A DNA stretch of 64,000 bases from Eubacteriales bacterium (lineage in GTDB: Bacteria; Bacillota; Clostridia; Oscillospirales; CAG-272), in contig JBGVPV010000067.1 of NCBI GenBank assembly GCA_045127215.1, positions 272-64,271 on the forward strand, in the 5' to 3' direction. Below the pieces are notes generated by a model that was not told the origin of the DNA, searched no databases, and saw only the letters and a list, made by a program, of their open reading frames with translations. Positions 37,277-60,558 of the stretch are shown here, piece by piece. Numbering within the stretch: the stretch's first letter is position 1; every line of letters starts with the position of its first letter. The position numbers and the translations under genes are program-made.

Positions 37277-37305
37277 TTGACTTTTTTGGCTTTTGGTGTT
37301 AAAAT
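37277..37305 (+). promoter_or_regulatory. Sigma-A-type promoter with extended -10, upstream of the cobalamin riboswitch
   Basis: TTGACT (37277-37282), 17-nt spacer, TGt-TAAAAT (37300-37305). Confidence 0.5.
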
Positions 37306-37311
37306 TGTATA

Positions 37312-37460
37312 AGCGTATAGGGGCGCACACGGTGCTTAATAAGGAATTCGGTGAGAAGCCGAAACGAGCGTGTCGCCGTAAGTAAAAGGGAATTCAAAAC
37401 GGGATAGCCGCATATCCTGCATCCATTGGGCCGAAAGCCTGAGAAGGTTTTTGAATTTAT
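37312..37460 (+). ncRNA. Cobalamin (B12) riboswitch aptamer
   Basis: AAGGAATTCGGTGAGAAGCCGAAACGAGCGTGTCGCCGTAAGT resembles the conserved core AAGGGAA..GGTGAAAATCC...CCCGC.ACTGTAAG. TCCATTGGGCCGAAAGCCTGAGAAGG resembles the B12-box region GCCACTGG...CTGGGAAGG. The downstream genes fit. The expression platform was not resolved. Confidence 0.6.
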
Positions 37461-37577
37461 ATACCTTTACGAGTCGGAAGACTTACCCCGCACGGATCTT
37501 TTGTTGCACGGACCAACTACGACTTTTTGTTGTGAGATTCGAATACGTAAAAAAATAAAATATTTAGGAGAAAAAAG

Positions 37578-41821: not shown

Positions 41822-42044
41822 CGTAGGAATTTTCGAGACATAGCACTCTCTTAAATTCCATTTTTATGTGCGTTTTTTAGCCGCGCTCTCAGTCTCTGGC
41901 GTACCTTTGTATGCCGACGAGATCACGTCTTCTGCATCTTAATGACTCAGCCCTTTTTTAATTTAAATATCCTTTTCTCCCTCTGCGGCATATTATGACA
42001 ATGAGGGATTTTCCCCTTATAATTTTCAAGAGAGGTACAAAAAT

Positions 42045-42287
42045 ATGTATATGGATTTTGATTCGTCCCCTACATGCGGATGCGGCGGACGAAATACAAA
42101 CGGCTGCGGTGAGCGCAGAACGTGGGGCGTTGAAGGATATCCGCTCGCTTCTATGTATGCGCCGCTTCAGAATTTTGATAAGCTGTATGATGAGAAGACC
42201 GCGCTTAAAAAGGGAACTATATTTTCAGAATTAGATCTGCCGTTTATGGGAGAGAGTGTTTACAGAGGAGGTTGTAATCGTGGTTGA
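42045..42287 (+). CDS. cotJA: Spore coat-associated protein CotJA
   Basis: GYPLASMYAPLQNFDKLYDEKTALKKGTIFSELDLPF is the conserved CotJA core. Confidence 0.85.
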   Translation: MYMDFDSSPTCGCGGRNTNGCGERRTWGVEGYPLASMYAPLQNFDKLYDEKTALKKGTIFSELDLPFMGESVYRGGCNRG

Positions 42288-42627: not shown

Positions 42628-43050
42628 ATGTGGACATACGAGAAAAAGCTTGAATATCCTGTAAGGATCAAAACACCTAACCCTAAGCTCGCGCAGATAA
42701 TAATCACGCAGATGGGCGGACCTGACGGTGAGCTTGGCGCGTCGATGAGATATTTGCACCAGCGTTATTCCTGCCCCTACGATAAGGTCACGGGAGTACT
42801 TACGGATGTCGCTACGGAAGAGCTTGCGCATCTTGAGATGATAGCCGCGATCGTATATCAGCTCACGCGTAACCTGAGCCCTGACGAGATAGCGGGTACG
42901 CCTTTTGCGACCTATTTTGTCGATCATACCACAGGCGCTTATCCCATTGCGGCATCAGGCGTGCCGTTTGATATGAAATACGTAGGCGTTAAGGGTGATA
43001 TTCTCACAGATCTTAACGAAGACCTTGCGGCAGATGGCACGACCTTGTAA
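42628..43050 (+). pseudogene. cotJC: cotJC (manganese-catalase-family spore coat protein), truncated after ~134 codons at the ICE junction
   Basis: MWTYEKKLEYPV...GGPDGELGASMRYL...TEELAHLEM is collinear with CotJC. After ...DLNEDLAA the frame reads DGTTL-stop. Full-length CotJC is about 190 aa as I remember it. Confidence 0.75.
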
Positions 43051-43302
43051 GAACAACCTTTGAAAACGAAGTGCCGAAAGCCCTTGATTTTATTGGATTT
43101 TTTCGTTTTTGAAAGTAGTACAAGCCTTGCCGCCCTGCATACATATAAGGACAACAAACGTCTAAAATCATCAAAAATAACAAGAAAGGTGATAGGGACA
43201 AGCTGTTTCCTAAAAATCAAATAACACCGTAAAAGCGGCGTTCTTTCATTCCCTTACGGGAGATAGGACGCCGCTTTTTCTATTACAAAGGAGTGATACA
43301 CA

Positions 43303-44238
43303 ATGGCAGTTTTTCGGGTGGAGCGAAACGCGGGCTATACCGTAATGAGCAACCACCACTTACGAAACAAGGACTTGACCTTAAAGGCAAAGGGGCTGTT
43401 GTCGCAAATGCTCTCCCTACCCGAAGATTGGGACTTTACCCTTGCGGGGCTGTCGTACATCAACCGAGAAAAGATAGACGCTATCCGCGAAGCCATACGC
43501 GAGCTTGAAAAAGCGGGATATATCGTCCGATCAAGAGAACGCGACGAGAAAGGACGTTTGCGCGGTGCTGACTATGTGATCTATGAGCAACCACAACAGC
43601 CTACGTCGGATTTACCTACATTGGAAAATCCAACATTGGATAATCCTACGTTGGAAAAACCTACGTTGGAAAATCCAACGCAAATAAATAAAGATATATT
43701 AAATACTAACTTACCGAAAAAAGATAAATCAATTACGGATTTATCAAATACCGATTCCATTCCTATCCTTTCCCCGCGATTTGAAAAATCGCTGACCCCA
43801 TCACCTTTCGGGGAGGACGCGGCAGAGCCGACGGAACGGAAAGGAAAAAAAGCGGCAACAGAAAGCGCAGTAGAAATATATCGGGAGATCATCAAGGACA
43901 ATATCGACTATGATATTCTCCTACACGATAACAAATATGACAAAGACCGTATTGACGAAATTCTTGACCTCATTCTTGAAACGGTATGTACGGCAAGAAA
44001 GACGCTACGTATAGCGGGCGACGACTACCCCGCAGAGCTTGTCAAGTCAAAGTTTTTGAAGCTCAATAGCTCACATATAGAGTTTGTTTTGGATTGTATG
44101 AAGCAGAACACAACAAAGGTACGCAACATCAAGCAGTATCTACGGGCTGTTCTCTTTAACGCACCGTCCACCATAGACAACTACTATACCGCCCTTGTCG
44201 CTCACGATATGGCGGCGGGCTATTTCAAAAAAGAATAA
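43303..44238 (+). CDS. ICE-encoded winged-helix/HTH protein (replication-initiator or organiser-like; first gene of this ICE family)
   Basis: The N-terminus MAVFRVERNAGYTVMSNHHLRNKDLTLKAKGLLSQMLSLPEDWDFTLAGL is the conserved start of proteins I recall at this position in Clostridial ICEs. It contains a PTLxN pentapeptide array. Confidence 0.5.
   Translation: MAVFRVERNAGYTVMSNHHLRNKDLTLKAKGLLSQMLSLPEDWDFTLAGLSYINREKIDAIREAIRELEKAGYIVRSRERDEKGRLRGADYVIYEQPQQPTSDLPTLENPTLDNPTLEKPTLENPTQINKDILNTNLPKKDKSITDLSNTDSIPILSPRFEKSLTPSPFGEDAAEPTERKGKKAATESAVEIYREIIKDNIDYDILLHDNKYDKDRIDEILDLILETVCTARKTLRIAGDDYPAELVKSKFLKLNSSHIEFVLDCMKQNTTKVRNIKQYLRAVLFNAPSTIDNYYTALVAHDMAAGYFKKE
43615..43680 (+). repeat. 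Tandem 15-nt repeat (4.4 copies) encoding P-T-L-E/D-N/K pentapeptides
   Basis: cctacattggaaaat / ccaacattggataat / cctacgttggaaaaa / cctacgttggaaaat / ccaacg. Confidence 0.9.
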
Positions 44239-44326: not shown

Positions 44327-44803
44327 ATGCAAGACCAGGTAAACGAAAAAGTGGTAGCCGTTTCAATCAAAACAACCAAGCTGACCGCTTCCGTTCTGCA
44401 AGCGGCTATCAAGCAAGTGCTTGCGAAAATGAAAGCACAGAGGGGCAAACAGCCACGCGGCAAGCAGACCCTAAAACAGCTTATGAAGCAGAATACGGGC
44501 ATTTCAAACATTGAGATCACCGACAGCAATATTAAGGACTTTACCGCAACGGCGAAAAAGTACGGCATAGATTTCGCGCTGAAAAAAGACGCAACCGAAA
44601 ACCCGCCCCGCTATCTTGTATTTTTCAAAGGGCGCGACGCTGACGTTCTGACGGCGGCATTTAAGGAGTTTTCCGCAAAGAAGCTGACAAAGGAACAGAA
44701 GCCGTCTATCAAGAAACTGCTTGCCACAATGAAAGAAAAAGCGGCGGCGCGGAACGCACAGCGCGAGAAAGTGAACAAGAAAGATCGGGGGCTGACGCTA
44801 TGA
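44327..44803 (+). CDS. PcfB-family (DUF3801) conjugation protein
   Basis: KDFTATAKKYGIDFALKKD...PPRYLVFFKGRDADVLTAAFKEF is typical PcfB. It precedes the coupling protein with an ATGA overlap. Confidence 0.75.
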   Translation: MQDQVNEKVVAVSIKTTKLTASVLQAAIKQVLAKMKAQRGKQPRGKQTLKQLMKQNTGISNIEITDSNIKDFTATAKKYGIDFALKKDATENPPRYLVFFKGRDADVLTAAFKEFSAKKLTKEQKPSIKKLLATMKEKAAARNAQREKVNKKDRGLTL

Positions 44804-46563
44804 AAAAGAAATCAATCAAGCCTATTTTGTTAAAGCTCCCGTATCTCGCTTTTGTCTATCTCTTTGACAAGCTAACCCAAGCAATCCGTCTTTCCTTGCG
44901 GGACGACGTTATGGAAACGCTGTTAGCTATGGGCGAGGGCTTTGCAGAAGCGTTTGACACATTCGCGCCGAGCTTCCACCCCGTAGATTTGACCATCGCC
45001 GTGATCGGAACGGGGCTTATATTCCTTGTGATGTATGCACGCGGGCTTGAAGCCCGGAAGTACCGCAAAGGAATGGAATACGGCTCGGCACGTTGGGGCA
45101 ACGCCGAGGATATTGCGCCGTACATAGACCCCGTATTTGAAAATAACGTACTGCTTACCAACACCGAGCGTCTTATGATGTCAAGCCGTCCGTCCCACCC
45201 GAAATATGCAAGAAACAAAAACGTGCTTGTAGTCGGCGGTAGCGGAAGCGGTAAAACCCGCTTTTACGTCAAACCGAACTTAATGCAAATGCACAGTAGC
45301 TACGTTGTAACAGACCCGAAAGGCACCGTCCTCATTGAGTGCGGAAAAATGTTGCAGCGCGGCGGATATCGGATAAAGGTACTCAATACGATCAATTTCA
45401 AAAAATCTATGCACTATAACCCGTTTGCGTATATCCACAACGAAACCGATATTTTGAAGCTCGTAAATACCTTGATTGAGAACACCAAGGGCGACGGCGA
45501 AAAAAGCGGCGAGGATTTTTGGGTAAAAGCCGAAAAGCTCTATTACTGTGCGCTGATCGGGTATATCCATTACGAAGCCCCCGAAAGCGAAAAGAATATA
45601 TCCACCCTGCTTGATATGATTAACGCTTCCGAAGCCCGCGAGGACGACGAGGAATTTCAAAATCCCGTTGACCTTATGTTTGAGAGATTAGAGGAAAAAG
45701 ACCCTGAACACTTTGCCGTGAAGCAATACAAGAAATACAAACTCGCGGCGGGCAAAACGGCAAAATCAATCCTCATATCGTGCGGTGCGCGGCTTGCTCC
45801 CTTTGATATAAAAGAGTTGCGCGAGCTTATGGAAACCGACGAAATGGAGCTTGATACTCTCGGAGATCGTAAGACGGCGTTATTCATCATTTCAAGTGAT
45901 ACCAACAGTACCTTTGACTTTGTAAACGCGCTGATCTGCTCACAGCTTTTCAACGTACTGTGTACCAAAGCCGATGATGTGTACGGCGGGCGGCTTCCCG
46001 TTCACGTCCGCTGTCTGCTCGACGAATTTGCAAATATCAAAATCCCCGATATGCAACGTCTGATCGCGGTACTCCGAAGCCGTGAAATCTCTTGCTCCCT
46101 TGTGGTGCAATCGCAAAGTCAGCTAAAAGCCATTTACAAAGATCACGCAGATACCATTGTCGGCAACTGTGATACTATGCTGTTTCTCGGCGGCAAGGAA
46201 AAAACGACGCTCAAAGAAATCTCCGAAATCTTGGGTAAGGAAACAATCGACAGCTTTAATAAAAGCGAAAACCGAGGACGCGAGGTGTCCCACGGGCTGA
46301 ACTTCCAAAAGCTCGGTAAAGAGCTTATGACCCAAGACGAAATTGCCACAATGGACGGCAGTAAATGTATTCTGCAAGTGCGCGGTGTGCGCCCCTTTAT
46401 CTCGGATAAATTCGATATTACCGCGCACCCGAACTATAAATACCTCTCTGACTTCGACAAGAAAAACACCTTTGACCCTGAAAAGGAGTTAAAGCGTCGC
46501 CCCGCAATCGTCGGGCAAAACGAAGTCTTTGACTATTACGAAATCGACGTTAGCGAGGGCTGA
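44800..46563 (+). CDS. Type IV secretion coupling protein (VirD4/TraG-like, CD1115-type)
   Basis: Two N-terminal TM helices, Walker A VVGGSGSGKT, and Walker B-like LLDEFAN. 587 aa. Confidence 0.9.
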   Translation: MKKKSIKPILLKLPYLAFVYLFDKLTQAIRLSLRDDVMETLLAMGEGFAEAFDTFAPSFHPVDLTIAVIGTGLIFLVMYARGLEARKYRKGMEYGSARWGNAEDIAPYIDPVFENNVLLTNTERLMMSSRPSHPKYARNKNVLVVGGSGSGKTRFYVKPNLMQMHSSYVVTDPKGTVLIECGKMLQRGGYRIKVLNTINFKKSMHYNPFAYIHNETDILKLVNTLIENTKGDGEKSGEDFWVKAEKLYYCALIGYIHYEAPESEKNISTLLDMINASEAREDDEEFQNPVDLMFERLEEKDPEHFAVKQYKKYKLAAGKTAKSILISCGARLAPFDIKELRELMETDEMELDTLGDRKTALFIISSDTNSTFDFVNALICSQLFNVLCTKADDVYGGRLPVHVRCLLDEFANIKIPDMQRLIAVLRSREISCSLVVQSQSQLKAIYKDHADTIVGNCDTMLFLGGKEKTTLKEISEILGKETIDSFNKSENRGREVSHGLNFQKLGKELMTQDEIATMDGSKCILQVRGVRPFISDKFDITAHPNYKYLSDFDKKNTFDPEKELKRRPAIVGQNEVFDYYEIDVSEG

Positions 46564-46649
46564 CAGAAAGGAGGTCTATTTTGACACAAGTAAATACGGG
46601 CTATGAGGTACGCGCTCCCACTCGGCAGCGCGTAACATAGCACCCCCGC

Positions 46650-46678
46650 AACCGCCGCAGAAATACGGCGGTTTTCTT
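46650..46678 (+). terminator. Hairpin plus T-run between the coupling-protein and Maff2 genes (attenuator/terminator)
   Basis: aaccgccg, loop cagaaata, cggcggtt, then ttc. Confidence 0.5.
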
Positions 46679-46753
46679 ATATCCTAAATCAAAAACACAA
46701 AATCAAAACAATAATTTTTACAGCCGCAAAGCGGCAGAAAGTAAGGAAAATAT

Positions 46754-46972
46754 ATGTCATTTTTTACTTCGGCAGTTGGTGTACTTCAAACCCTTGTAAT
46801 CGCGCTCGGTGCAGGTCTTGCCATTTGGGGCGTTGTCAATCTTATGGAGGGCTACGGCAACGATAACCCCGGCGCAAAGTCGCAGGGTATGAAACAGCTT
46901 ATGGCGGGCGGCGGTGTTGCGCTGATCGGTCTTACCCTTGTACCGCTTCTTTCGGGACTTTTCACCGTATAA
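46754..46972 (+). CDS. Maff2-family small membrane protein
   Basis: 72 aa with 2 TM helices. LMEGYGNDNPGAKSQGMKQLMAGGG is the characteristic loop. Confidence 0.75.
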   Translation: MSFFTSAVGVLQTLVIALGAGLAIWGVVNLMEGYGNDNPGAKSQGMKQLMAGGGVALIGLTLVPLLSGLFTV

Positions 46973-46990
46973 GCCCGTAAGGTACCGCTT

Positions 46991-47860
46991 ATGAAAGGCA
47001 TACTTGACTCGATTAACGAATGGATAAGGGAAATTCTCATAGGAGCCATAAACGGTAATCTGTCAACTATGTTCGGGGACGTAAACGAAAAGGTCGGAAG
47101 CATAGCGGGCGAAGTCGGACAGACCCCGCAAGCGTGGAACGCAAGCATATTTTCTATGATACGGACGCTATCGGAGAATGTGATCGTTCCCGTTGCGGGG
47201 CTTGTCATTACCTACGTTCTTTGTTATGAGTTAATCACGATGATAACGGAAAAGAACAATATGCACGACGTTGACACGTTTATGTTTTTCAAGTGGTTTT
47301 TCAAATCGTGGGTAGCGGTCTATCTCGTTACCCACACCTTTGATATAACAATGGCGGTATTTGAGCTTGCACAGCACGTTGTAGGCGGCGCGGCGGGTGT
47401 CATTGGTGGAAACACAAGTATCAATGTCAATGCCGCGCTTTCCTCAATGCAATCACAGCTTGGCTCAATGGAGATCCCCGAACTGCTTTTGCTCGTTATG
47501 GAAACAAGCCTTGTCAGCTTATGTATGAAAATAATGTCAATTCTGATAACGGTTATTCTGTACGGGCGTATGATAGAAATTTACCTTTACTGCTCCGTCG
47601 CTCCCATTCCGTTCGCAACAATGACAAACCGCGAATGGGGACAGATCGGAAACAACTATTTGCGAAGCCTTTTTGCACTCGGTTTTCAAGGCTTCCTCAT
47701 TATGATTTGCGTGGGTATCTATGCCGTACTTGTAAACACGATGATTATAGCGAACAATCTGCACAGCGCGATATTCTCCCTCGCGTCGTACACGGTGATT
47801 CTTTGCTTCTCGCTGTTCAAGTCGGGCGCACTCGCAAAATCAATTTTTAACGCACACTAA
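46991..47860 (+). CDS. VirB6/TrbL-like T4SS channel protein (CD1112-type)
   Basis: 289 aa and polytopic. It holds the conserved position between Maff2 and PrgI. Confidence 0.7.
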   Translation: MKGILDSINEWIREILIGAINGNLSTMFGDVNEKVGSIAGEVGQTPQAWNASIFSMIRTLSENVIVPVAGLVITYVLCYELITMITEKNNMHDVDTFMFFKWFFKSWVAVYLVTHTFDITMAVFELAQHVVGGAAGVIGGNTSINVNAALSSMQSQLGSMEIPELLLLVMETSLVSLCMKIMSILITVILYGRMIEIYLYCSVAPIPFATMTNREWGQIGNNYLRSLFALGFQGFLIMICVGIYAVLVNTMIIANNLHSAIFSLASYTVILCFSLFKSGALAKSIFNAH

Positions 47861-47884
47861 CGGGCGCAGAAAGGAGGTCAGATA

Positions 47885-48301
47885 ATGGCTTACGTTCCCG
47901 TTCCGAAAGACTTAACCAAAGTCAAAAGCAAATTCGCTTTTAATCTCACGAAGCGTCAAATATTCTGTTTCGGACTTGCGGCGGCTATCGGGCTACCGCT
48001 TTTCTTTTTACTCAAAGGGGCGACGGGTACAACCGTTGCGGCGTTTGCAATGATACTTGTAATGCTCCCTTGCTTCCTCTTTGCTATGTATGAGAAAAAC
48101 GGTATGCCGCTTGAAAAGGTACTACGAAACGTCATACAGACAAAATTCATTCGCCCGAAAGAGCGACCGTATAAAACACAGAACTTTTACGCCGTCGTAG
48201 AACGGCAGACGAAACTAACAAAGGAGGTATCAGCTATTGTCAAAGGTACAGACAGTAAAACCAAGAGCGCAGACGGCAAGCGCACCGAGCGTAAGCCGTA
48301 A
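47885..48301 (+). CDS. PrgI-family (VirB3-like) T4SS membrane protein
   Basis: MAYVPVPKDLTKVKSKFAFNLTKRQ plus a two-TM hairpin. It lies directly upstream of VirB4. Confidence 0.75.
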   Translation: MAYVPVPKDLTKVKSKFAFNLTKRQIFCFGLAAAIGLPLFFLLKGATGTTVAAFAMILVMLPCFLFAMYEKNGMPLEKVLRNVIQTKFIRPKERPYKTQNFYAVVERQTKLTKEVSAIVKGTDSKTKSADGKRTERKP

Positions 48302-50678
48302 GCTCTCCCGCGCCGAACAAAATCAAATTGCCGCCGCGATCAAACGCGCAAAGGGCGACGGCAAGGCGAAAACGGCACAGCAGACAATCCCGTATCAGCA
48401 GATGTACCGCGACGGCGTTTGTCATATCGGCGGGAAGAAATACAGTAAAAGCGTTCAGTTTGAGGATATAAACTATCAGCTTGCACAGCCCGACGAAAAG
48501 AGCGCGATTTTCGACCATTGGTGCGATTTTCTCAACTACTTTGACGCTTCCGTGTCGGTACAGTTATCTTTCATCAATCAAGGCACAAAAAGCGACGAAG
48601 CCGAAAAAGCGATTGAGATCACCCCGAAAGGCGACGACTTTGACAGCATACGCGCAGAGTACGCGGATATGCTGAAAGGTCAGCTTGCAAAAGGCAATAA
48701 CGGCATAGTCAAAGCAAAATATATTACCTTTTCCGTCGAAGCGGAAAACATCAAGGCGGCAAGGGCCCGACTTGCCCGCATTGAAACCGATATTTTAAGC
48801 AATTTCAAGGTGCTTGGTGTAGCGGCAAAGCCTATGACGGGCTATGACCGTTTGGAAACCCTACACGGCACGTTCCACCCCGACGGCGAGCCGTTCCGCT
48901 TCTCTTGGAATTGGCTTGCCCCGTCGGGACTATCCACAAAGGATTTTATCGCGCCGTCCTCGTTTGCGTTCGGTGATGGGCGCACGTTCAAAATGGGGCG
49001 TAAGCTCGGCGCGGTGTCATTCTTGCAAATCCTTGCCCCCGAACTGAACGACCGTATGCTTGCGGATATTCTCGATCTAGAATCGGGTATTATCGTCAAT
49101 CTGCATATTAAGAGTATCGACCAGGGCGAAGCAATCAAGACCATTAAGCGAAAGATCACAGACCTTGACAAGATGAAGATTGAGGAACAGAAAAAGGCGG
49201 TACGCAACGGTTACGATATGGATATTATTCCGTCCGACCTTGCCACATTCGGCAACGAAGCAAAAAATCTGTTGCAGGAGTTACAGAGCCGCAACGAGCG
49301 AATGTTTTTACTCACGTTCCTTGTCGTCAACCTTGCCGACACGAAACAAAAGCTCGACAATGAAATTTTCTCGGTATCGGGTATCGCGCAGAAATACAAC
49401 TGTGCCTTGACCCGCCTTGACTTTCAGCAAGAAGCGGGCTTTATGTCAAGTCTGCCCCTCGGAGATAATCAGATTGAAATACAGCGCGGGCTGACGACCT
49501 CAAGCACAGCAATTTTTATCCCCTTTATCACACAAGAGCTATTCCAAACGGGCGAAGCTCTTTACTACGGACTTAACGCACTATCAAATAATATGATTAT
49601 GTGCGACCGCAAGAAGCTCAAAAACCCGAACGGGCTAATCCTTGGCACCCCCGGAAGCGGTAAATCTTTCTCGGCAAAGCGCGAAATGACAAACGCCTTT
49701 CTGATTACCGATGACGATATTATCATTTGCGACCCCGAAGCCGAGTATTTCCCCCTTGTTGAGCGTTTACACGGTCAAGTTATCCGTCTGTCGCCGTCGG
49801 GTATTGGTAACGACGGAAAGCCGCAGTACATAAACCCTATGGATATAAACCTTGAATACGACGAAAACCCGCTTGCGCTGAAATCCGACTTTATCCTTTC
49901 TCTGTGTGAGCTGATCGTCGGCGGCAAGACGGGGCTTGAACCCGTGGAAAAGACGGTCATTGACCGCGCTGTGCGGAACGTGTACCGCCCTTTTATGGCA
50001 AACCCCGACCCCGCACAAATGCCTATCTTGGGCGATCTCTACAACGAGCTTTTGAAGCAACCCGAACCCGAAGCTATGCGTATCGCGTCGGCGTTGGAGC
50101 TTTACGTTTCGGGAAGTCTGAACGTCTTTAACCACCGTACCAACGTAGAGCTTACAAACCGCCTTGTCTGCTTTGACATCAAACAGCTTGGCAAGCAGTT
50201 AAAGAAGATCGGTATGCTCATTGTGCAAGATCAAGTGTGGAATCGCGTTACCGTCAACCGCGACGCAAAGAAGTCAACAAGATACTATATCGACGAAATG
50301 CACCTACTCTTAAAAGAAGAACAGACCGCCGCTTACACGGTGGAAATTTGGAAGCGTTTTAGAAAATGGGGTGGTATTCCGTCGGGGCTGACGCAGAACG
50401 TCAAGGACTTGCTTGCTTCAAAGGAAGTGGAAAACATCTTTGAAAACAGCGACTTTATCCTTATGCTCAATCAAGCGGCGGGAGATCGCGCTATCCTTGC
50501 AAAACAGCTTAATATCTCCCCGCGTCAGATGAAGTACGTTACGCAAGCCGACGCGGGCGAGGGACTAATCTTTTACGGAAATGTCATACTTCCGTTTGTT
50601 GACCGCTTCCCGAAGGACACCGAGCTTTACCGCGTTATGACGACCAAGCCCGAAGAAGTGGGAGAAAACACGGTATGA
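48237..50678 (+). CDS. VirB4-like conjugal transfer ATPase (CD1110/PrgJ-type); start uncertain (TTG 48237 overlaps prgI)
   Basis: IPYQQMYRDGVC...FEDINYQLA N-domain, Walker A GTPGSGKS, Walker B YYIDE. Confidence 0.9.
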   Translation: MSKVQTVKPRAQTASAPSVSRKLSRAEQNQIAAAIKRAKGDGKAKTAQQTIPYQQMYRDGVCHIGGKKYSKSVQFEDINYQLAQPDEKSAIFDHWCDFLNYFDASVSVQLSFINQGTKSDEAEKAIEITPKGDDFDSIRAEYADMLKGQLAKGNNGIVKAKYITFSVEAENIKAARARLARIETDILSNFKVLGVAAKPMTGYDRLETLHGTFHPDGEPFRFSWNWLAPSGLSTKDFIAPSSFAFGDGRTFKMGRKLGAVSFLQILAPELNDRMLADILDLESGIIVNLHIKSIDQGEAIKTIKRKITDLDKMKIEEQKKAVRNGYDMDIIPSDLATFGNEAKNLLQELQSRNERMFLLTFLVVNLADTKQKLDNEIFSVSGIAQKYNCALTRLDFQQEAGFMSSLPLGDNQIEIQRGLTTSSTAIFIPFITQELFQTGEALYYGLNALSNNMIMCDRKKLKNPNGLILGTPGSGKSFSAKREMTNAFLITDDDIIICDPEAEYFPLVERLHGQVIRLSPSGIGNDGKPQYINPMDINLEYDENPLALKSDFILSLCELIVGGKTGLEPVEKTVIDRAVRNVYRPFMANPDPAQMPILGDLYNELLKQPEPEAMRIASALELYVSGSLNVFNHRTNVELTNRLVCFDIKQLGKQLKKIGMLIVQDQVWNRVTVNRDAKKSTRYYIDEMHLLLKEEQTAAYTVEIWKRFRKWGGIPSGLTQNVKDLLASKEVENIFENSDFILMLNQAAGDRAILAKQLNISPRQMKYVTQADAGEGLIFYGNVILPFVDRFPKDTELYRVMTTKPEEVGENTV

Positions 50679-51625
50679 GCGAGAACATCATTATCAACCG
50701 CGATTGTCTTGCCGCTCTCCGCGACCTACCCGACGAAAGCGTGAATTGCTGTGTAACGTCGCCGCCGTATTACGCCTTGCGGGATTATGGTATGGACGCG
50801 CAGATCGGACGCGAGGACAACCCCGAAGAATATATACGGCGGCTTGTTCTTGTGTTCCGAGAGGTGCGCCGCGTGCTGACCGCCGACGGCACTTTATGGC
50901 TGAATATCGCAGATACCTATTGCGGAACGGGCAACAAGGGCGGCTATCTTGACCCGAAAAATCCCAAAGGCAGAAACGGGCAAAGCGTTTCACTTGCGCG
51001 TCGTGCGAGCGAGTGCAAGCAAAAGGATATGATCGGTATTCCGTGGCTGCTTGCATTCGCTCTCCGCGCCGACGGGTGGTATTTGCGAAGCGACATTATA
51101 TGGTGCAAGGCAAACCCTATGCCCGAAAGTTGCAAAGACCGTCCGAGCCGTTGCTATGAACACGTCTTTTTGCTCACCAAGTCAAAGAAGTATTACTATG
51201 ACGCGCTCGCCATAGCCGAGCCGATTGCCGAGGGTACGGCGGCAAGGTATAAAGGCGGGCGAAGTGCAAGCAGTAAATACGCCGAGGAAATCCCCGGACA
51301 AGGTAAGGTGCAAAAGCTCAACGCGGCGCGGGCGGCGGGTACGATCATCGACGCGGATATATCCCCCGTCAGAAACGCCCGCGACGTGTGGCATATCAAC
51401 ACCGTACCATACAAGGGCGGGCATTTTGCCGCCTACCCGCCGAAGCTCGCGGAAAGGTGTATTTTAGCGGGCTGTCCTCGCGGCGGTATCGTTCTTGACC
51501 CCTTTTTCGGAAGCGGCACAACGGGGCTTGCGGCAGTTAAGAATGACCGCCGCTATATCGGTATCGAGTTAAACAGCGAGTATTGCGAGCTTGCAAAAGA
51601 ACGTATTGGAGGTGTGAAGTTATGA
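50675..51625 (+). CDS. Orphan DNA methyltransferase (N6-adenine/N4-cytosine, beta class)
   Basis: Motif IV CVTSPPY is N-terminal and motif I DPFFGSGTT is C-terminal. It has 4-nt overlaps with both neighbours. No restriction gene is adjacent. Confidence 0.85.
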   Translation: MSENIIINRDCLAALRDLPDESVNCCVTSPPYYALRDYGMDAQIGREDNPEEYIRRLVLVFREVRRVLTADGTLWLNIADTYCGTGNKGGYLDPKNPKGRNGQSVSLARRASECKQKDMIGIPWLLAFALRADGWYLRSDIIWCKANPMPESCKDRPSRCYEHVFLLTKSKKYYYDALAIAEPIAEGTAARYKGGRSASSKYAEEIPGQGKVQKLNAARAAGTIIDADISPVRNARDVWHINTVPYKGGHFAAYPPKLAERCILAGCPRGGIVLDPFFGSGTTGLAAVKNDRRYIGIELNSEYCELAKERIGGVKL

Positions 51626-52950
51626 GCGAGCCGCAAAAGCCCAAAAGCTACCGCTTACAATTCACCGATGAAGAACGGGCAAGCCCCGAGCTTGACAAGT
51701 TCATCAAGAAATCGGAGAAAGCGGCTGACCGCTACGACAAGGCAAGTGCGGCTATCCCGAAGAAAAACAAAATAGTCAAGGAACGTACTTTTGACGAAGC
51801 AACGGGCAAGGCAAAAACGCGGCTTCACTTTGAAAAACAGGACAAGCCGCCGAGCGACGCGAGGGGCAAGCACAAAATCCCCTTGCGCCCCGTCGCCCAA
51901 GCCGAGTTATACGTTCACGGCAAAATACACGAAGTTGAGAAAGACAATTCGGGCGTGGAAGCGGCGCACAAGAGCGAGGAACTTGCCGAGGGCGCGGCGA
52001 AGTACGGGGCGCGGAAGCTCAAAGAGGGCTACCACAGCCGCAAGCTCAAACCCTATCGAGCCGCCGCCAAAGACGAAAAAGCGGCTATCAAGGCAAACGC
52101 AGAATTTAAGTATCAAAAAGCACTCCAAGATAACCCGCAGATCGCCGCATCAAATCCATTTTCCCGCTTTATGCAAAAACAGCGTATCAAGCGCGAGTAT
52201 GCAAAGGCGGCGAAAAAAGGCGGTATCAAATCGGCAAAGAAAACCGCCGAGAACGCGGGCAAAGCCGCAAAGAAAACGGCACAAACAACCAAAAACACCG
52301 TTTCATTTGTAGCGCGTCATTGGAAAGGCGTATTGATCGGTATTTGTGCGCTACTGCTTTTCGTGATAATCTCGGCGGGCGTTACCTCTTGCGTATCACT
52401 TTTAACGGGCGGTATGTCAACCGTCGTTGGAAGCTCCTACGTTGCCGAGGACGCGGATATGCTCGGTGCGGAAGCCGATTACAAGTCAAAGGAAGCGGCA
52501 TTACAAAGCCGTATTGACAATATCGAGCGCACATATAGCGGCTACAACGAGTACCGCTATTTCCTTGACAGTATCGGACACGACCCTTATGTGCTGACTT
52601 CCATTCTGACGACCTTGCACATTGACTATACCCGCGCGGGCGTACAAGACACCTTGCAGACGATTTTTGATATGCAATACAGCTTAACGCTCACGTCCGA
52701 AACCGAAGTACGCTACCGCACCGAAACCCGCATTGGAAGCTATCAAGTAACCGATGAGGAAACGGACGAGGTATCAACCGTTTACTACGAATACGAGGTA
52801 GAAGTGCCATACAACTATTACATTCTGAACGTCAGCTTAACAAGTGAGGATATGGCGGGGCTGACCGCTTACCTTATGACCGATGAACAGTTTGACGCCT
52901 ACCTTGTGTATATGCAGACAAAGGGCAACCGCCCCGACCTATTCCCATAA
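51622..52950 (+). CDS. T4SS-associated membrane protein resembling the N-terminal part of CD1108-type mobile-element proteins; no hydrolase domain seen
   Basis: Start set to ATG 51622 (MSEPQKPKSYRLQFTDEE), an ATGA overlap. It has a Lys/Ala-rich N-region, one TM (VLIGICALLLFVIISAGV), then about 190 aa. No NlpC/P60, CHAP, M23 or lysozyme motif was found. Confidence 0.5.
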   Translation: MSEPQKPKSYRLQFTDEERASPELDKFIKKSEKAADRYDKASAAIPKKNKIVKERTFDEATGKAKTRLHFEKQDKPPSDARGKHKIPLRPVAQAELYVHGKIHEVEKDNSGVEAAHKSEELAEGAAKYGARKLKEGYHSRKLKPYRAAAKDEKAAIKANAEFKYQKALQDNPQIAASNPFSRFMQKQRIKREYAKAAKKGGIKSAKKTAENAGKAAKKTAQTTKNTVSFVARHWKGVLIGICALLLFVIISAGVTSCVSLLTGGMSTVVGSSYVAEDADMLGAEADYKSKEAALQSRIDNIERTYSGYNEYRYFLDSIGHDPYVLTSILTTLHIDYTRAGVQDTLQTIFDMQYSLTLTSETEVRYRTETRIGSYQVTDEETDEVSTVYYEYEVEVPYNYYILNVSLTSEDMAGLTAYLMTDEQFDAYLVYMQTKGNRPDLFP

Positions 52951-52974
52951 TTTTTGAAAGGAGATTTACAGCCT

Positions 52975-53232
52975 ATGGCAAACAGCAAAATTAACCGTAT
53001 CGACAAAGAGATTTTGAAAACCCGTGAGAAGATCAGCGAGTACCAAAACAAATTGCGCTCCCTTGAAGCGCAAAAGGCAGAAGCCGAAAACTTGCAGATC
53101 GTACAGCTTGTACGCGCTATGCACCTAACCCCCGCCGAGCTTTCCGCTTTGCTTGCGGGCGGTGGAATCCCCGGCATTGCAACAGTACCCGCAGAAGATG
53201 AAAACGAGGAGGACAGCGACAATGAAGAATAA
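52975..53232 (+). CDS. DUF4315-family coiled-coil protein
   Basis: Start set to ATG 52975 (MANSKINRIDKEILKTREKISEYQNKLRSLE), which follows AAAGGAG. Confidence 0.7.
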   Translation: MANSKINRIDKEILKTREKISEYQNKLRSLEAQKAEAENLQIVQLVRAMHLTPAELSALLAGGGIPGIATVPAEDENEEDSDNEE

Positions 53233-54049
53233 AAACATATTCCGTATGACGAGTGTATTGCTCATTTCAATACTTTGCGTATGCGGGCTTTCCCTTAACG
53301 CTTACGCAAGCGACGGCGGCGATTATTACAGCACCGAGCCGACCGAAGAAACAACCAACCCGCCCGTTATCGTTATTCCCGCAGAGAGCGAGGACGACGA
53401 GCAGACAGACGAGCCTATCATCATCAAGCCCGAAAACGCCTTTACCCCTGACGGCAATATGACGCTGATTGATAACGTCGAGGGCGAGGACGAAGGACAG
53501 AAGCAGTTTATCATTGTTCAGAGTAAAAACGGACACTATTTTTATATCGTGATCGACTACTCTGCCGAGGGCGAAAACACGGTACATTTTCTTAACCAAG
53601 TGGACGAAGCCGACCTTATGGCAATTTTAGCCGAGAAAGAAATCACCCTTTCCCCCGCCGAGTGTACTTGTACCGATAAATGCGCCGTGGGCGACATTGA
53701 CACCACTTGCTCCGTATGTATTGCGGCTATGAATGATTGCGCGGGCGCGGAAGCAACGACGCCCGATGAAACAAACCCGCCTGCAGACGATGAACAGCCC
53801 GCCCCAAGCGGACTAAACACGGGCGCGATTATCGGCATTGTTGCTATTCTTGCACTTGCGGGCGGCGGTATCTTCTACTATTTCAAGGTGTTAAAGCCCA
53901 AACAGCAGAAGAACAAACAGCCGCAGGACGCGGAGCTTTCCGAGCTTGAATATGACGAGTACGACGAGGACGAGGAATATACCGAAGCACTTGAAGAAAT
54001 TGCCGACGAAATGAGCTACGATACCGACGACACGGACGATAAAGAATAA
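53222..54049 (+). CDS. DUF4366-family (CD1107-type) surface protein with signal peptide and C-terminal TM anchor
   Basis: Start set to ATG 53222 (MKNKNIFRMTSVLLISILCV). FTPDGNMTLIDN...KQFIIVQSKNGHYFYIVIDY is the DUF4366 core. The TM is IIGIVAILALAGGGIFYYF and the tail is acidic. Confidence 0.75.
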   Translation: MKNKNIFRMTSVLLISILCVCGLSLNAYASDGGDYYSTEPTEETTNPPVIVIPAESEDDEQTDEPIIIKPENAFTPDGNMTLIDNVEGEDEGQKQFIIVQSKNGHYFYIVIDYSAEGENTVHFLNQVDEADLMAILAEKEITLSPAECTCTDKCAVGDIDTTCSVCIAAMNDCAGAEATTPDETNPPADDEQPAPSGLNTGAIIGIVAILALAGGGIFYYFKVLKPKQQKNKQPQDAELSELEYDEYDEDEEYTEALEEIADEMSYDTDDTDDKE

Positions 54050-54055
54050 AAAATT

Positions 54056-54077
54056 CCCTCTGCGATTTAGCAGAGGG
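54056..54077. terminator. Hairpin between DUF4366 and the AT-rich cargo gene
   Basis: ccctctgc, loop gattta, gcagaggg. Confidence 0.5.
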
Positions 54078-54083
54078 AAAACA

Positions 54084-54818
54084 TCATTTATTATCTTTTT
54101 TATTTTCTGTTTTATCGTCATTGTGGGATTTTTTTGCTCGTTCCAATAGTCTTTGGAATGTAACAACAAAAAGGCACATAACAATCATTGCCATAGTAAT
54201 GACAGTTATTATTATGACAGTTTCCATTCCATGAAGAGACCCTGACATAATAGGAAATACATCCAACATCACAAAAGAGAATAAAGTCAAGAAAGCTGAA
54301 AGCATTGCTACCATTATGCTGAAAGTAGATGAAAGTTTTTTTGAATATTCCATTTTATTTATTTTAGTGGAAACAATCAATTCCTTTTCTATTTCAGTAA
54401 CTAATAGTGATTTATCGCGCTCTTTGTTCAAGTTGTGAAGATATTCTCTTAAGTGAGCGGTATATTCTTGCTTTTTATCTGCAGAAACATATACATTTTC
54501 CACGATTTCTCGTATTAACTCCTCGCAGACAATACGAATTGAATATAATTCTTCGCTTTTAACCTTATATTTTCTTGCTGTCGAAAGAATAATTGCATCT
54601 ATAATTTCTTTTTCAGGCAATCCCTTTTCAGCAATATATGGTTTTAGAGAACGGATTATATCCAAGTTGGCGTTATTTATCTGTTCAAGATACTTTGTGT
54701 TTTCTTTTCGATGCAAAATACCTGCGGTTATAAAATAGACGATTATACCGCTGATAATTCCGCCACCAATGCCTACTACCCAAGCATTAGAAAATAACTT
54801 TACAAGGAAATCCCACAT
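54084..54818 (-). CDS. Hypothetical 3-TM membrane protein, AT-rich cargo gene on the opposite strand
   Basis: Start set to ATG 54818 (MWDFLVKLF), which follows GAGAGG. It has one N-terminal TM, a ~150-aa helical soluble region, and a C-terminal TM hairpin. A spot count on one 60-nt line gives ~30% G+C. Confidence 0.6.
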   Translation of the reverse strand: MWDFLVKLFSNAWVVGIGGGIISGIIVYFITAGILHRKENTKYLEQINNANLDIIRSLKPYIAEKGLPEKEIIDAIILSTARKYKVKSEELYSIRIVCEELIREIVENVYVSADKKQEYTAHLREYLHNLNKERDKSLLVTEIEKELIVSTKINKMEYSKKLSSTFSIMVAMLSAFLTLFSFVMLDVFPIMSGSLHGMETVIIITVITMAMIVMCLFVVTFQRLLERAKKSHNDDKTENKKDNK

Positions 54819-54898
54819 ATCATACCTCTCAATCAAGTGTCGTTTATTGTCTAAATTATATCATAAAAACTCGAAAAAATCAATAGAAAGGAAATAAT

Positions 54899-56971
54899 AT
54901 GAAACTTATTATCGCAGAAAAGCCGAGCGTCGCGCAGAATATCGCCGCCGCGCTGAACGTGGGCGGCAGAAAGGACGGATATATTGAGGGCGGCGGTTAT
55001 CTGATCTCTTGGTGTGTGGGGCATTTGGTAGGACTTGCGGCGGCTGACGCTTACGGCGAGCAGTACGCAAAATGGAACTATGATACGCTTCCCATTCTCC
55101 CGAAAGAATGGCAGTACACCGTCGCCACCGACAAAGGCAAGCAATTCAAAATCCTAAAAGAGCTTATGCACCGCGCCGACGTTTCCGAAGTCGTCAATGC
55201 TTGCGACGCGGGGCGCGAGGGTGAATTGATCTTCCGTTTTGTGTATAACGTAGCGAACTGTAAAAAGCCTATGCGCCGTCTTTGGATTTCCTCTATGGAA
55301 GCCGAAGCTATCCGCGCGGGCTTTGCTGATCTGAAGGACGGCGCAGACTATGACGCGCTCTATTCTTCCGCGCTGTGTCGTGCAAAGGCAGATTGGATTA
55401 TCGGTATCAATGCGACCCGCCTTTTCTCTTGTCTGTATCATAAGACCTTGAACGTAGGACGAGTGCAGACCCCGACCCTCAAAATGCTCGTTGACCGCGA
55501 AGCACAGATTATGAGCTTCAAGAAAGAAAAGTACCACATTGTACGCCTTGATCTTGACGGCACCGAAGCGACAAGCGCGAGGATCTCCGACAAGTCAGAA
55601 GCAGACAAGCTGACCGCCGCTTGCAAAACCTCAAGCGCGGTTTGCGTATCGGTCAGCCGCGAGAAAAAGAGCGTCGCACCGCCCAAGCTCTTTGACCTTA
55701 CCACCTTACAGCGAGAAGCAAACAAACTCTACGGCTACACAGCAAAGCAGACCCTTGATCTCGCGCAAGCTCTCTATGAAAAGCGTCTGCTTACATATCC
55801 GAGAACGGACAGCACCTATCTCACCGAGGATATGAGCAAAACGGCGGCAAGCGTCGCCGCTTTGCTCACGGCAAAACTACCCTTTATGAGAGGCGCGGAT
55901 TTTACCGCCGATCTTTCCCGTATGCTTGACAGTAAAAAGGTGTCAGACCACCACGCGATCATTCCCACAATGGAGCTTGAAAAGACCGAGCTTTCGGCAC
56001 TTCCCGAAACCGAGCGTAACATCTTATCTCTTGTCGGTGCGCGTCTGCTTTTTGCGGCCGCCGCACCGCACGTTTACGAAACGGTAAAAGCTATCTTCTG
56101 TTGTGCCGATACAGAGTTTACAGCAACGGGAAAGACGGTACTTTGCGGCGGGTGGAAAGAGCTTGAACGACGCTACCGCGCAACGCTCAAACAAAATCCC
56201 GACGACGAGGACGGCGACGTTCCCACACTCACCGTTTCCGAGGGACAGAGCTACGATAACCCCGCCGCGAGTGTTACCGAGCATTACACCACACCCCCGA
56301 AATCCCACACCGAAGATACCTTACTTTCGGCTATGGAACGGGCGGGCAACGAGGACACCGACGAGGACGCAGAACGTCGCGGGCTTGGTACTCCCGCCAC
56401 CCGCGCCGCCGTCATTGAAAAGCTCGTCAGCGCGGGATTTGCAGAGCGAAAAGGAAAACAGCTTATCCCCACCAAAGACGGCAACAACCTTGTGTGTGTT
56501 CTCCCCGACGTGCTGACAAGCCCGAAGCTGACGGCAGAATGGGAAAACACCTTGACGCAGATTGCAAAAGGAAACGCTGACGCAGACGTTTTTATTTGCG
56601 GTATCGAAGATATGACACGGGAGCTTGTAAAGATATATCCTTTCCTCTCCGACAGGGACAAAGCCCTTTTCAAAGAGGAAAAGCCCATTGTCGGTAAGTG
56701 TCCCCGTTGCGGTGAAAACGTCTTTGAGAGCAAGAAAAACTATTACTGCTCAAACAGAGATTGCGCCTTTGTGATGTGGAAAAATGACCGCTTCTTTGAG
56801 GAACGCAAGGTGAAGTTTACCCCCAAAATTGCCGCCGAGCTTTTGGAGGACGGCAAGGCGAAAGTCAAAAAGCTGTATTCTCACAAAACGGGCAAAACCT
56901 ACGACGGAACGGTACTACTCTCCGACACGGGCGGTAAATACGTCAATTATCGTATAGAGAAAACGAGGTAA
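54899..56971 (+). CDS. topB: DNA topoisomerase III
   Basis: Toprim start MKLIIAEKPS, GHL, catalytic region LLTYPRTDS, and a C-terminal C4 zinc ribbon (CPRCGENV...YYCSNRDC). Confidence 0.9.
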   Translation: MKLIIAEKPSVAQNIAAALNVGGRKDGYIEGGGYLISWCVGHLVGLAAADAYGEQYAKWNYDTLPILPKEWQYTVATDKGKQFKILKELMHRADVSEVVNACDAGREGELIFRFVYNVANCKKPMRRLWISSMEAEAIRAGFADLKDGADYDALYSSALCRAKADWIIGINATRLFSCLYHKTLNVGRVQTPTLKMLVDREAQIMSFKKEKYHIVRLDLDGTEATSARISDKSEADKLTAACKTSSAVCVSVSREKKSVAPPKLFDLTTLQREANKLYGYTAKQTLDLAQALYEKRLLTYPRTDSTYLTEDMSKTAASVAALLTAKLPFMRGADFTADLSRMLDSKKVSDHHAIIPTMELEKTELSALPETERNILSLVGARLLFAAAAPHVYETVKAIFCCADTEFTATGKTVLCGGWKELERRYRATLKQNPDDEDGDVPTLTVSEGQSYDNPAASVTEHYTTPPKSHTEDTLLSAMERAGNEDTDEDAERRGLGTPATRAAVIEKLVSAGFAERKGKQLIPTKDGNNLVCVLPDVLTSPKLTAEWENTLTQIAKGNADADVFICGIEDMTRELVKIYPFLSDRDKALFKEEKPIVGKCPRCGENVFESKKNYYCSNRDCAFVMWKNDRFFEERKVKFTPKIAAELLEDGKAKVKKLYSHKTGKTYDGTVLLSDTGGKYVNYRIEKTR

Positions 56972-57108
56972 GAAAAGAAACGTAGCAAGCATAGGAAAGG
57001 GGTACCCCTTCCGTAAATATCCCCGCTTTCGCTCTTAACGATTGCGGGGATATTCGTTTGCTGGGATATTCCCAAACCCTTATATAAAAATAGCGAAAGG
57101 AGCTTTAT

Positions 57109-60100: not shown

Positions 60101-60192
60101 TCCGCGCACAGCTTAAAAAGGACGCGGGCAAAGAAAAAGCCGCCCCGAAAAAAGCGGCGACCAAAAAGAAAAATAACGATTTGGAGGTATGA
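57109..60192 (+). CDS. Polyvalent ICE protein: ArdA-like(?) N-domain, ArdC-type ssDNA-binding domain, HExxH metalloprotease, YodL-like domain, Lys-rich tail
   Basis: ArdC N-domain FKEYLNVMSKFHNYSFNNTVLIALQKPDASLVMGFNAWKGKG. Zincin motif TAIHEIAHAKLHD. YodL-like YFEIYQI...LEDIYTRFNIDIPEDYTGRSLSLSDVVVL. The first ~200 aa (GGFWLDMPATKEQLHAAM...VDELNFLAARLAEL) resemble ArdA. Confidence 0.7.
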   Translation: MDETFAILIDSKTRFETGTAGGFWLDMPATKEQLHAAMESVGITSNNPQDFFIRGYMDNEQNHIALPHDLVCAADVDELNFLAARLAELDPAEIEKLNAALQSKMGFENVGKIIDFTYNTDFFVHVPEAHTARELGDYYLNKSGAVQMPEEWKGGIDLAMFGQHAAEREDGAFTQYGYITKSGDEWERQFEGRDVPEEYRIMSYPQPARLDPEKVEFDTIATRQAAVLTAEPPEAIPVKPIIPTATDPNGKLKEITDRLEQGIADLFNSERFKEYLNVMSKFHNYSFNNTVLIALQKPDASLVMGFNAWKGKGIERNVKKGEQGIRIFAPAPYKIKTEAEKLDPDTKKPIIGEDGKPITETKEITIPAFKVVCVYDVSQTEGKELPTLGIDELLGSVENYKDFFAALEKTSPVPIAFEQIEGGAHGYYHLEDKRIALDEGMSELQTLKTAIHEIAHAKLHDIDLNAPAEERANRPDRRTREVEAESVAYTVCQHYGLDTSDYSFGYVAGWSSGREMSELKSSLETIRATAAEIIDSIDAHIAEIRKEREAAPPELDSKGEPMVTIIWSENSKLRDGETMPLSRANALFEALDAQNKDTPGYDKTKFRIDFTLDGKPEQYEGRQDLGDGEGSLIDHIEKFNAYYLNNEEWQNQLLRSEGRKAMEADRATRGLLVGEVVPYLRLHCNLSEMEQAAKSALHNTASLTPIDTAYFTAITEYVAECRAMLNSGIYELPEAPKRSDFDPELQAYKAQVKAEVKKETYFEIYQIANTEQTAEIVFEPYDRLIATGHTVDPANYELVYSAPLTPDMTLEDIYTRFNIDIPEDYTGRSLSLSDVVVLHQDGDVSAHYVDSVGFREVPQFLDRDKAQVIIPGEHTTGEKITTPRGSFSVTDMTREQMEVAGYGVHHTSEDGKHLIMGNGTNAFAVVAENPIKHVEDTIEQNDNKFDGIINNTPEPPTVDALEAKAKAGEPISLVDLANAIKAEEKGGKSKPKEEKQSIRAQLKKDAGKEKAAPKKAATKKKNNDLEV

Positions 60193-60194
60193 GA

Positions 60195-60404: not shown

Positions 60405-60515
60405 CGCCCACAAGCGCGAGGGCGCACCCTACGCGCCTTTCGCGCCGCAGACAGCAAACACACACGGCGCAGACAAACGCGCCCAAAACGAATTTTAGCG
60501 TACCCAAAACAAACA

Positions 60516-60558
60516 GACGGGGCGCGGCACCGATACGGCTGCCGCGTCCCGTCTTTTT
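60516..60558. terminator. Bidirectional terminator hairpin, left copy (flanks the AT-rich cassette)
   Basis: gacggggcgcggca (60516-60529) pairs with tgccgcgtcccgtc (60540-60553) with one G-U, followed by a T-run. It abuts the stop of the minus-strand HNH-like gene. Confidence 0.75.

Follow-up and report, generated by a model that had tools for sequence, protein, structure and literature searches.

Split of cotJC at the Glu136 codon

We analyzed a 64,000-nucleotide stretch of the genome of a Eubacteriales bacterium (Oscillospirales, CAG-272; GenBank assembly GCA_045127215.1, contig JBGVPV010000067.1, positions 272 to 64,271), hereafter the window, in which the gene cotJC ends where an integrative and conjugative element (ICE) begins. 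In the window, cotJA and cotJB are followed by an open reading frame (ORF) of 140 amino acids (aa) at 42628-43050 (+), which starts MWTYEKKLEYPV and terminates ...NEDLAADGTTL-stop (C-terminal sequence ...GDILTDLNEDLAADGTTL-stop). It is composed of CotJC residues 1-135 and five foreign codons. The features of the junction, in window coordinates and with attB, attL, attR, and attP as the usual names of attachment sites, are the following:

42045..42287 (+): cotJA, 80 aa; Pfam PF11007 CotJA, E 1.6e-13; gene order as in the element-free contig L002
42256..42609 (+): cotJB, longest ORF 117 aa; Pfam PF12652 CotJB, E 7.7e-20
42628..43034 (+): host part of cotJC, codons 1-135 and the GA of the Glu136 codon; 98% nucleotide identity to the L002 gene
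43033..43034 (+): proposed crossover dinucleotide GA, common to attB, attL, and attR
43035..43050 (+): element-derived tail, five foreign codons and stop (D-GTTL-stop), the D codon being GA+T
43035..43119 (+): left end of the ICE, attP-derived arm TGGCACGACCTTGTAAGAACAACCTTTG..., with an inverted repeat at 43053-43070 / 43102-43119
43231..43283 (+): terminator-like hairpin and T-run between the cotJC fragment and the first ICE gene; 17-nt arms, 88% complementary

The true start of cotJB may lie further downstream, and other gene callers give 81-117 aa for the same gene. Matches to Mn_catalase, CotJA, and CotJB, together with the cotJA-cotJB-cotJC operon, place the split gene in the CotJC/manganese-catalase family. 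The Mn_catalase profile of Pfam aligns to residues 1-136 of the 140-aa ORF over profile positions 1-150 of 284 (E 4e-35). Full-length homologues, 92-98% identical over the common part, run on ...NEDLAAEQKARTTYDNILRL... to 206-207 aa, and because close homologues of 200-207 aa in a large protein collection likewise continue ...NEDLAAEQKARTTYDNILRL... past LAA, we regard the window gene as truncated. An earlier, sequence-only reading of this DNA had placed the truncation at about codon 135, which is confirmed here. Its estimate of about 55 missing codons, based on a CotJC of 185-190 aa, was too low; intact CotJC in the lineage of the window has 206 aa, leaving the window copy short by 71 codons, and the residues after LAA are EQKAR and not EKAR as that reading had them. 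Of the metal-binding elements, the fragment retains the first helix, TEELAHLE; the predicted second ligand set (Glu136 and His169) is missing, as had also been anticipated. Manganese catalases in PDB align to CotJC over residues 1-176, and the alignment ranges put Glu136/His169 at the positions of Glu148/His181 of 1jku, the Lactobacillus plantarum enzyme, which we take to be its second metal-ligand set.

The unoccupied site is preserved in contig L002, which encodes an intact 206-aa CotJC homologue (P0004), so that the short ending ...LAADGTTL is not found in this element-free relative. The gene order of L002 equals that of the left side of the window (DUF4430, a 183-aa ORF, an MFS transporter, a GH2 glycosidase, cotJA, cotJB, and cotJC), with 93-98% DNA identity. 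In an ungapped nucleotide comparison, the two differ by scattered substitutions up to 43034 and match at random level beyond. The window reads ..CTTGCGGCAGA up to the break and TGGCACGACC.. after it, and the intact L002 gene reads ..CTTGCGGCAGA followed by GCAGAAGGCG.. across the same point. The break is thus at 43034/43035, inside the interval 43033-43036 that had been named as the insertion point, and the conjugation module follows; the last common bases are GA (43033-43034), the first two of the Glu136 codon. The gene is split, with an exact junction and an empty site in a close relative.

Five other assemblies, built by different assemblers, each have a contig with the same 140-aa product, left end, and downstream genes; one of these five contigs, L085, is 100% identical to the window across 6.3 kb. 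Samples in which the junction occurs include SRR25030041, SRR27608054, ERZ27297561, and ERZ28633386. Contigs 96-98% identical to the window show the site in three states: empty in L002, occupied by the ICE of the window, and occupied in L088 by another element, where cotJC receives a DAAI tail and is followed by a DUF6100 gene.

Left end and gene content of the ICE

A spacer of 250 bp, described earlier as containing hairpins, separates the cotJC fragment from the first ICE gene, a DUF6017 gene starting at 43303 as that description had it. It holds the inverted repeat and the terminator-like hairpin, whose folded part (43231-43278, then T5) has a predicted energy of -29.5 kcal/mol (z = -5.97; 0 of 200 shuffles equally stable). 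When reverse-complemented, the left end of the window element matches, imperfectly, the right ends of the related contigs L089 and L091, which read ..AAAGTTTGTTCTTATATGATTGC(A/C)CCA. A left end of the window type, from 43035 at 98.9% identity (alignment 43030-43207), is also present in contig L176 beside a cotJC (..DLMEDMGA/D..) that lacks detectable nucleotide similarity to the window cotJC; at the level of sequence, this indicates recent transfer between distant hosts.

The genes of the element within the window are as follows:

43303..44238 (+): DUF6017/HTH_36 protein, 311 aa, first ICE gene; Pfam PF19481, E 1.8e-71
44327..50678 (+): transfer genes (Pfam) for DUF3801, a VirD4-type coupling protein (44800-46563, +), Maff2, TrbL_2, PrgI, and a VirB4-like ATPase (48237-50678, +)
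50675..60192 (+): genes (Pfam) for an N6/N4 DNA methylase, an unknown 455-aa protein, a CD1107-like protein, a membrane protein (on the - strand), a topoisomerase, and a polyvalent protein
62459..63805 (-): MobA/VirD2-type relaxase, 448 aa; Pfam PF03432, E 7.6e-36

By Pfam matches, the conjugation module is complete across 43303-63805, with coupling protein, VirB4 ATPase, channel proteins, and relaxase. Records 65-81% identical to the VirB4-like protein carry the annotation "CD1110 family" in PLSDB. The topoisomerase has Toprim and Topoisom_bac domains, and the polyvalent protein (1027 aa, 57109-60192) joins ArdA, an ArdC N-terminal domain, an M78/zincin peptidase, LPD25, YodL, and DUF4316. 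The element continues past the window end at 64000, with a NikA/MobC gene just beyond it on contig L001; no integrase gene is present within 43303-64000.

One stretch of the right half of the ICE, 60558-62475, is the only one without similarity to the closest relative, L091. Its ORFs (60557-61489, -, and 61541-62407, +) gave no Pfam match, and it is probably an exchanged cargo module.

Far junction in related elements

In a search for a contig with an identical relaxase that would reach the right end, the sole match was a contig of 2.9 kb. A metagenome scan with the relaxase identified L091 as the closest ICE relative, with 97% aa identity in the relaxase and 90-94% DNA identity to window 51791-64000 except for one replaced module. 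Past the relaxase, L091 encodes NikA/MobC, a TetR-like protein, an ABC transporter pair, a sigma-70 region-4 protein, an HTH_16 protein, and a 54-aa ORF. Its terminal gene encodes a 521-aa protein with Resolvase, Recombinase, Zn_ribbon_recom, and DUF4368 domains. About 30 bp or less after the recombinase stop, the sequence ..GTTTGTTCTTATATGATTGCCCCA-GA-ACAGAAGGCGCGT.. leads into a cotJC 3' fragment.

By analogy with L091, the element of the window would end ~7.1 kb past the relaxase start and have a length of ~28 kb. Its own right end presumably resembles that of L091, with the sequence ..TTCTTATATGATTGCMCCA-GA- expected before the remainder of cotJC, and its integrase would be a ~520-aa large serine recombinase of the TnpX/TndX type. 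Right junctions of like arrangement were also found in L089/L090, L151, L164, L031, L177 (Subdoligranulum variabile), and L178. The peptide encoded by the 3' part of cotJC is EQKARTTYDNILRLVDDPDVRDPIKFLREREIVHYQRF. In a scan of genome contigs with the 3' peptide, 76 of the 80 loci were intact genes, and a usable right junction was seen only in L031; L051, L070, and L077 have cotJC 3' fragments that are broken off by contig ends.

The 5' part of the window gene, joined in silico to the sequence that follows GA in L002, L089, or L091, gave uninterrupted ORFs of 206, 206, and 218 aa, respectively. The sequence-only reading had asked whether such a join would restore a frame of about 190 aa; the frame is restored and somewhat longer. 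The best stand-alone fragments, P0121 (L089/L090) and its cluster mate P0241, were considered as the 3' part belonging to the window and rejected as coming from a related but different species, their flanks being 83-85% identical to L002 and carrying extra genes.

Attachment sites and proposed crossover

The left junction (attL) reads ..GCGGCA-GA-TGGCAC.., compared with ..GCGGCA-GA-GCAGAA.. in the empty site (attB). In relatives, attR reads ..GC(A/C)CCA-GA-(A/G)CAGAA.., and the gene resumes at its next base. There is no target duplication beyond the 2-bp core, and the joined frame is intact. In longer form, attL is GCGGCAGATGGCACG, attB is GCGGCAGAGCAGAAGG, and the predicted attP is TTGCMCCAGATGGCACG. 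The reverse complement of the left end of the window, CAAAGGTTGTTCTTACAAGGTCGTGCCA, matches the right end of L091, AAAGTTTGTTCTTATATGATTGCCCCA, which suggests an imperfectly palindromic attP, ..TTGTTCTTATATGATTGCMCCA-GA-TGGCACGACCTTGTAAGAACAA... This imperfect dyad around a central GA was put together from the ends of two related elements, not of one. From these sites we infer that crossover takes place at the GA that starts the Glu136 codon. This GA is invariant in all 77 intact cotJC loci of species-representative genomes, in which positions 1 and 2 of the flanking codons are almost invariant as well; the target sequence is kept constant by the metal-binding motif of the protein.

A recombinase clade using one codon in many hosts

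Interruption at this residue recurs widely among homologues. The 5' part was compared with its 120 best-matching protein clusters: 45 of them end exactly after ...LAA and pass into foreign tails (DAAI in 41, DGTT in 3, and DATI in 1). For the 3' part, 104 among the 120 best matches stand alone as fragments, and their leaders are foreign sequences such as MILT, VIVT, or MIAP. Both counts overstate prevalence, and 45/120 is no estimate of it, because clustering at 90% gives every new foreign tail a cluster to itself. In species-representative genomes, just 4 of 80 loci were without the 5' part. The DGTT tail class of the window recurs in other hosts.

Pairwise identity among eight recombinases that adjoin cotJC fragments is 60-95%. 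They align to TndX over the full length with ~31% identity, their best PDB match is the N-terminal domain of TnpX (E 1e-13), and they contain DUF4368, the C-terminal region of the TnpX/TndX subgroup. Among 80 relaxase-related loci, the cotJC-type recombinase was present only in L091, L151, and L164; related ICE backbones that are not beside cotJC (L102, L107, L144, and L154) carry recombinases only 21-33% identical to it. Since like ICE backbones carry different recombinases, and since this recombinase clade also rides on unrelated elements, the integration module is, to judge from these sequences, exchangeable and dedicated to the cotJC site. The unrelated carriers include a small element in L031 with an FtsK-like coupling protein and a Replic_Relax protein, and L178, where the recombinase of the clade occurs without DNA similarity to the ICE of the window. 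In L171 (10562-20423), a non-conjugative island with radical-SAM, metallophosphatase, EcsC, and McrBC genes occupies the same codon, its recombinase gene lying on the side of the 5' fragment, the reverse of the arrangement in window-type ICEs. These observations largely establish the Glu136 codon of cotJC as a common landing pad in gut Clostridia for one clade of large serine recombinases, and its use by whole ICEs, small mobilizable elements, and defense-type islands.

We considered whether the 23.9-kb "plasmid 18" of S. variabile (L177, OY725852.1 in PLSDB) represents an excised circle of such an element, and rejected this. Its recombinase is 71% identical and is followed by a cotJC 3' fragment, that is, by a right junction of chromosomal type and no attP; the circular-plasmid label of OY725852.1 may be an assembly artifact. 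In a separate case, L179 encodes a 220-aa manganese-catalase-family paralogue (10639-11301, -) about 120 bp inside the left junction of a DAAI-class element, on the strand opposite to the split cotJC. It might offset the loss of cotJC or be plain cargo.

Promoters at the right end and in the host operon

Transcription signals around the recombinase gene were examined in the relatives. In L089, L091, L151, and L164, the recombinase gene has a sigma-A-type promoter matching 11 of 12 positions, ATGACA-17-TGgTATAAT with an extended -10, which lies inside an inverted repeat and is conserved in the four right ends. A block of 38 nt, TGTTGTAATAGTGGACTTGCCGCwwTTCATATAGTGTA, is situated ~35 nt 5' of the 54-aa ORF, itself placed ahead of the recombinase gene (L089 1100-1200; also L091, L151, and L164). 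It is conserved in the same four right ends, whose recombinases are 88-95% identical, and fits the relaxed sigma-E pattern ATA-N17-CATATAGT with one mismatch in the fuller -35 consensus; the homologous sequences amount to a single observation. The block could instead be the target of the sigma-like protein encoded by the element itself. It is absent 5' of the recombinases in L031, L171, and L177, three other element types using the same site. The idea of a sporulation promoter shared by all cotJC-targeting elements was dropped, as scans with sigma-E and sigma-K patterns gave only isolated -10-like strings 5' of the recombinases in the other elements at this site. The sequence-only reading had suggested a look for sigma-E or sigma-K motifs at the recombinase; the gene itself has a sigma-A-type promoter, and a sigma-E-like box stands before the 54-aa ORF in one element family only.

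From the HTH_16 gene to the 54-aa ORF, the right end also has 430 bp of non-coding DNA, in which L089 991-1084 matches the Rfam "pemK RNA" motif (43.1 bits, gathering score 34.8).

On the host side, the best promoter-like site 5' of cotJA (window 41995-42023) is of sigma-A type, ATGACA-17-TATAAT, matching 11 of 12 positions. The cotJ operon is sigma-E dependent in Bacillus subtilis; sporulation promoters in the host of the window could differ, or cotJ may have a second promoter. Elsewhere in the host part of the window, we noted two T-box leaders and a cobalamin riboswitch, at 15843-16067 (-), 27272-27508 (+), and 37303-37504 (+), the cobalamin riboswitch being 5' of the DUF4430 gene and the 183-aa ORF.

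Comparison with known elements

As in Tn5397 (TndX, Clostridioides difficile) and Tn4451 (TnpX, Clostridium perfringens), a large serine recombinase gene stands at one end of the cotJC-type elements, and its product has the domain set Resolvase, Recombinase, Zn_ribbon, and DUF4368. Among PDB structures, TnpX is the best match; identity to TndX is only ~31%. TnpX and TndX are reported to cross over at GA, the dinucleotide that we propose here as well, and the orf7/orf8 pair of Tn916/Tn5397 is the counterpart of the genes for a sigma-like and an HTH_16 protein before the recombinase. Unlike Tn5397, the elements of the window type have a transfer module of the Tn1549/CTn4 type, not of the Tn916 type, and unlike both Tn5397 and Tn4451, cotJC elements target one fixed codon across many hosts. 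With Tn1549 and C. difficile CTn4 the module shares DUF3801, VirD4, Maff2, TrbL_2, PrgI, VirB4 of the "CD1110 family," a CD1107-like protein, topoisomerase, and a MobA/VirD2 relaxase. We group it with them because the VirB4 homologues are annotated as "CD1110 family" and the window protein is 65% identical to that of Enterococcus elements. The integrase of Tn1549 is of the tyrosine type, whereas the cotJC-type relatives carry a large serine recombinase.

The sequence-only reading had likened the locus to skin in sigK and SPbeta in spsM. The anatomy of that group, which also includes vfbin (spoVFB), vrin (spoVR), gin (gerE), and yin (yabG), does agree: a gene that is mother-cell-expressed in B. 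subtilis is split within the ORF, a large serine recombinase lies beside the junction, and precise excision would rebuild the gene, just as the break in cotJC falls in codon 136 and in-silico joining restores the gene. The likeness ends with anatomy. That group is made up of prophages, prophage remnants, and a small element of non-phage type, whereas the window element carries a full conjugation apparatus; sporulation-timed excision was measured there, whereas the cotJC element is known here from its sequence and the promoter of the recombinase looks vegetative.

A citing preprint credits Abe 2013 (Mol Microbiol 90:415) with listing cotJC among the targets of phage- or transposon-related insertions. 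Prophage phi027 of C. difficile lies beside, not inside, a CotJC-like gene. In the literature searched, we found no account of the exact codon, of a complete ICE at the cotJC site, or of the recombinase clade and its occurrence across gut Clostridia, and no report of a complete conjugative element acting as a developmental intervening element.

Origin of the split gene and alternative explanations

The arrangement is very probably the product of a ~28-kb conjugative element with a Tn1549/CTn4-type transfer module, integrated into cotJC by site-specific recombination at the GA of the Glu136 codon. The 140-aa form might instead be a natural short variant of CotJC, or an old pseudogene unrelated to the adjoining element, and the protein collection does contain several homologues of 140-153 aa. 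Every short form, however, departs at the same residue, after LAA, into the element-derived tails DGTT or DAAI; DNA identity to the intact allele of a close relative stops at that base; matching stand-alone 3' fragments adjoin recombinase genes; and the short form is without the predicted second metal-ligand set. This leaves the explanation with hardly any likelihood. We give as little credence to an assembly or binning chimera of a host contig and an ICE contig. Such errors are a concern because metagenome assemblies often break at ICE borders, and three of the cotJC 3' fragments (L051, L070, and L077) lie at contig ends, but five other assemblies, made with different assemblers, arrived independently at this junction, and its position is exactly the one used by related elements in other species.

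A further possibility concerns the timing of excision: the ICE would be a developmental intervening element, excised in the mother cell under sigma-E/sigma-K and kept by the forespore, a scenario that we consider unlikely. The recombinase, or the 54-aa ORF as a directionality factor, would drive excision, and intact cotJC would then be expressed for coat assembly. The anatomy fits skin and SPbeta, in that a mother-cell sporulation gene is split in frame, a large serine recombinase stands at the junction, and joining restores the ORF. The sigma-E-like block, which precedes both the 54-aa ORF and the recombinase gene and is shared by four right ends, would also suit it, split alleles are frequent, which suggests little cost, and abstracts on other sporulation-gene insertions describe their excision during sporulation. 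Against this, the promoter of the recombinase gene is a near-consensus sigma-A type, and the sigma-E-like match has its -35 mismatch, counts as one observation across homologues, and is missing in L031, L171, and L177. TnpX and TndX are not known to need a directionality factor for excision, and the same site is occupied in S. variabile, which is not known to sporulate. CotJC loss is quoted as giving no obvious defect in B. subtilis, so selection for timed repair may be weak. In the integration that we favor, excision would follow the regulation of the element itself and not a sporulation signal.

Several observations weigh against the site-specific integration of a ~28-kb ICE as we have described it. 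The right junction and recombinase belonging to the window lie beyond 64000 and were not recovered, and it is by analogy with L091 that the size of ~28 kb and the genes of the right end are given. Right-hand modules can vary, given that 60558-62475 differs between the window and L091. The att sites have CA-GA in common, so identity alone cannot fix the 2-bp core, and an exact-match search of IMG/VR for the circle junction of the predicted attP gave no match. Finally, the "low cost" of CotJC loss is drawn from B. subtilis and C. difficile, not from the host of the window.

In the integration that we favor, the recombinase would pair attP with an attB encoding ..EDLAA-EQKAR.., integrate the circular element after transfer, and later excise it. 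Integration would leave cotJC in two pieces, a 5' fragment whose 140-aa product is devoid of the predicted second metal-ligand set and, next to the recombinase gene, a 3' fragment; the same recombinase, acting in excision, would restore cotJC exactly. What the junctions, the empty site, and the rejoined frames demonstrate is an insertion that is site-specific, lies at a fixed codon, and is in principle reversible. cotJC may be favored as a target in that its sequence is conserved in most endospore-forming Clostridia and its product would be needed only in the sporulating mother cell, where, by analogy with B. subtilis, it is apparently dispensable. Since codon positions 1 and 2 are nearly invariant in Clostridia and the gene seems dispensable, the site would be a conserved, low-cost landing pad that could give the recombinase module a wide host range. 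Published work places cotJC among the widely conserved coat genes, and the low cost of CotJC loss is judged from studies of B. subtilis and C. difficile quoted there.

Implications

The attB/attP pair and its recombinase clade land in one nearly invariant coding sequence in many gut Clostridia. This att system is of use for finding the limits of ICEs and islands in assembled metagenomes, in which contigs often break at the cotJC site, and the recombinase clade is a candidate tool for site-specific integration in organisms that are hard to engineer. Many database entries for "short CotJC" and for 70-90-aa "manganese catalase family" proteins are halves of a split gene. If the developmental timing considered above were true, a complete, self-transmissible conjugative element, and not a prophage remnant, would act as a developmental intervening element and sporulation-timed gene switch.

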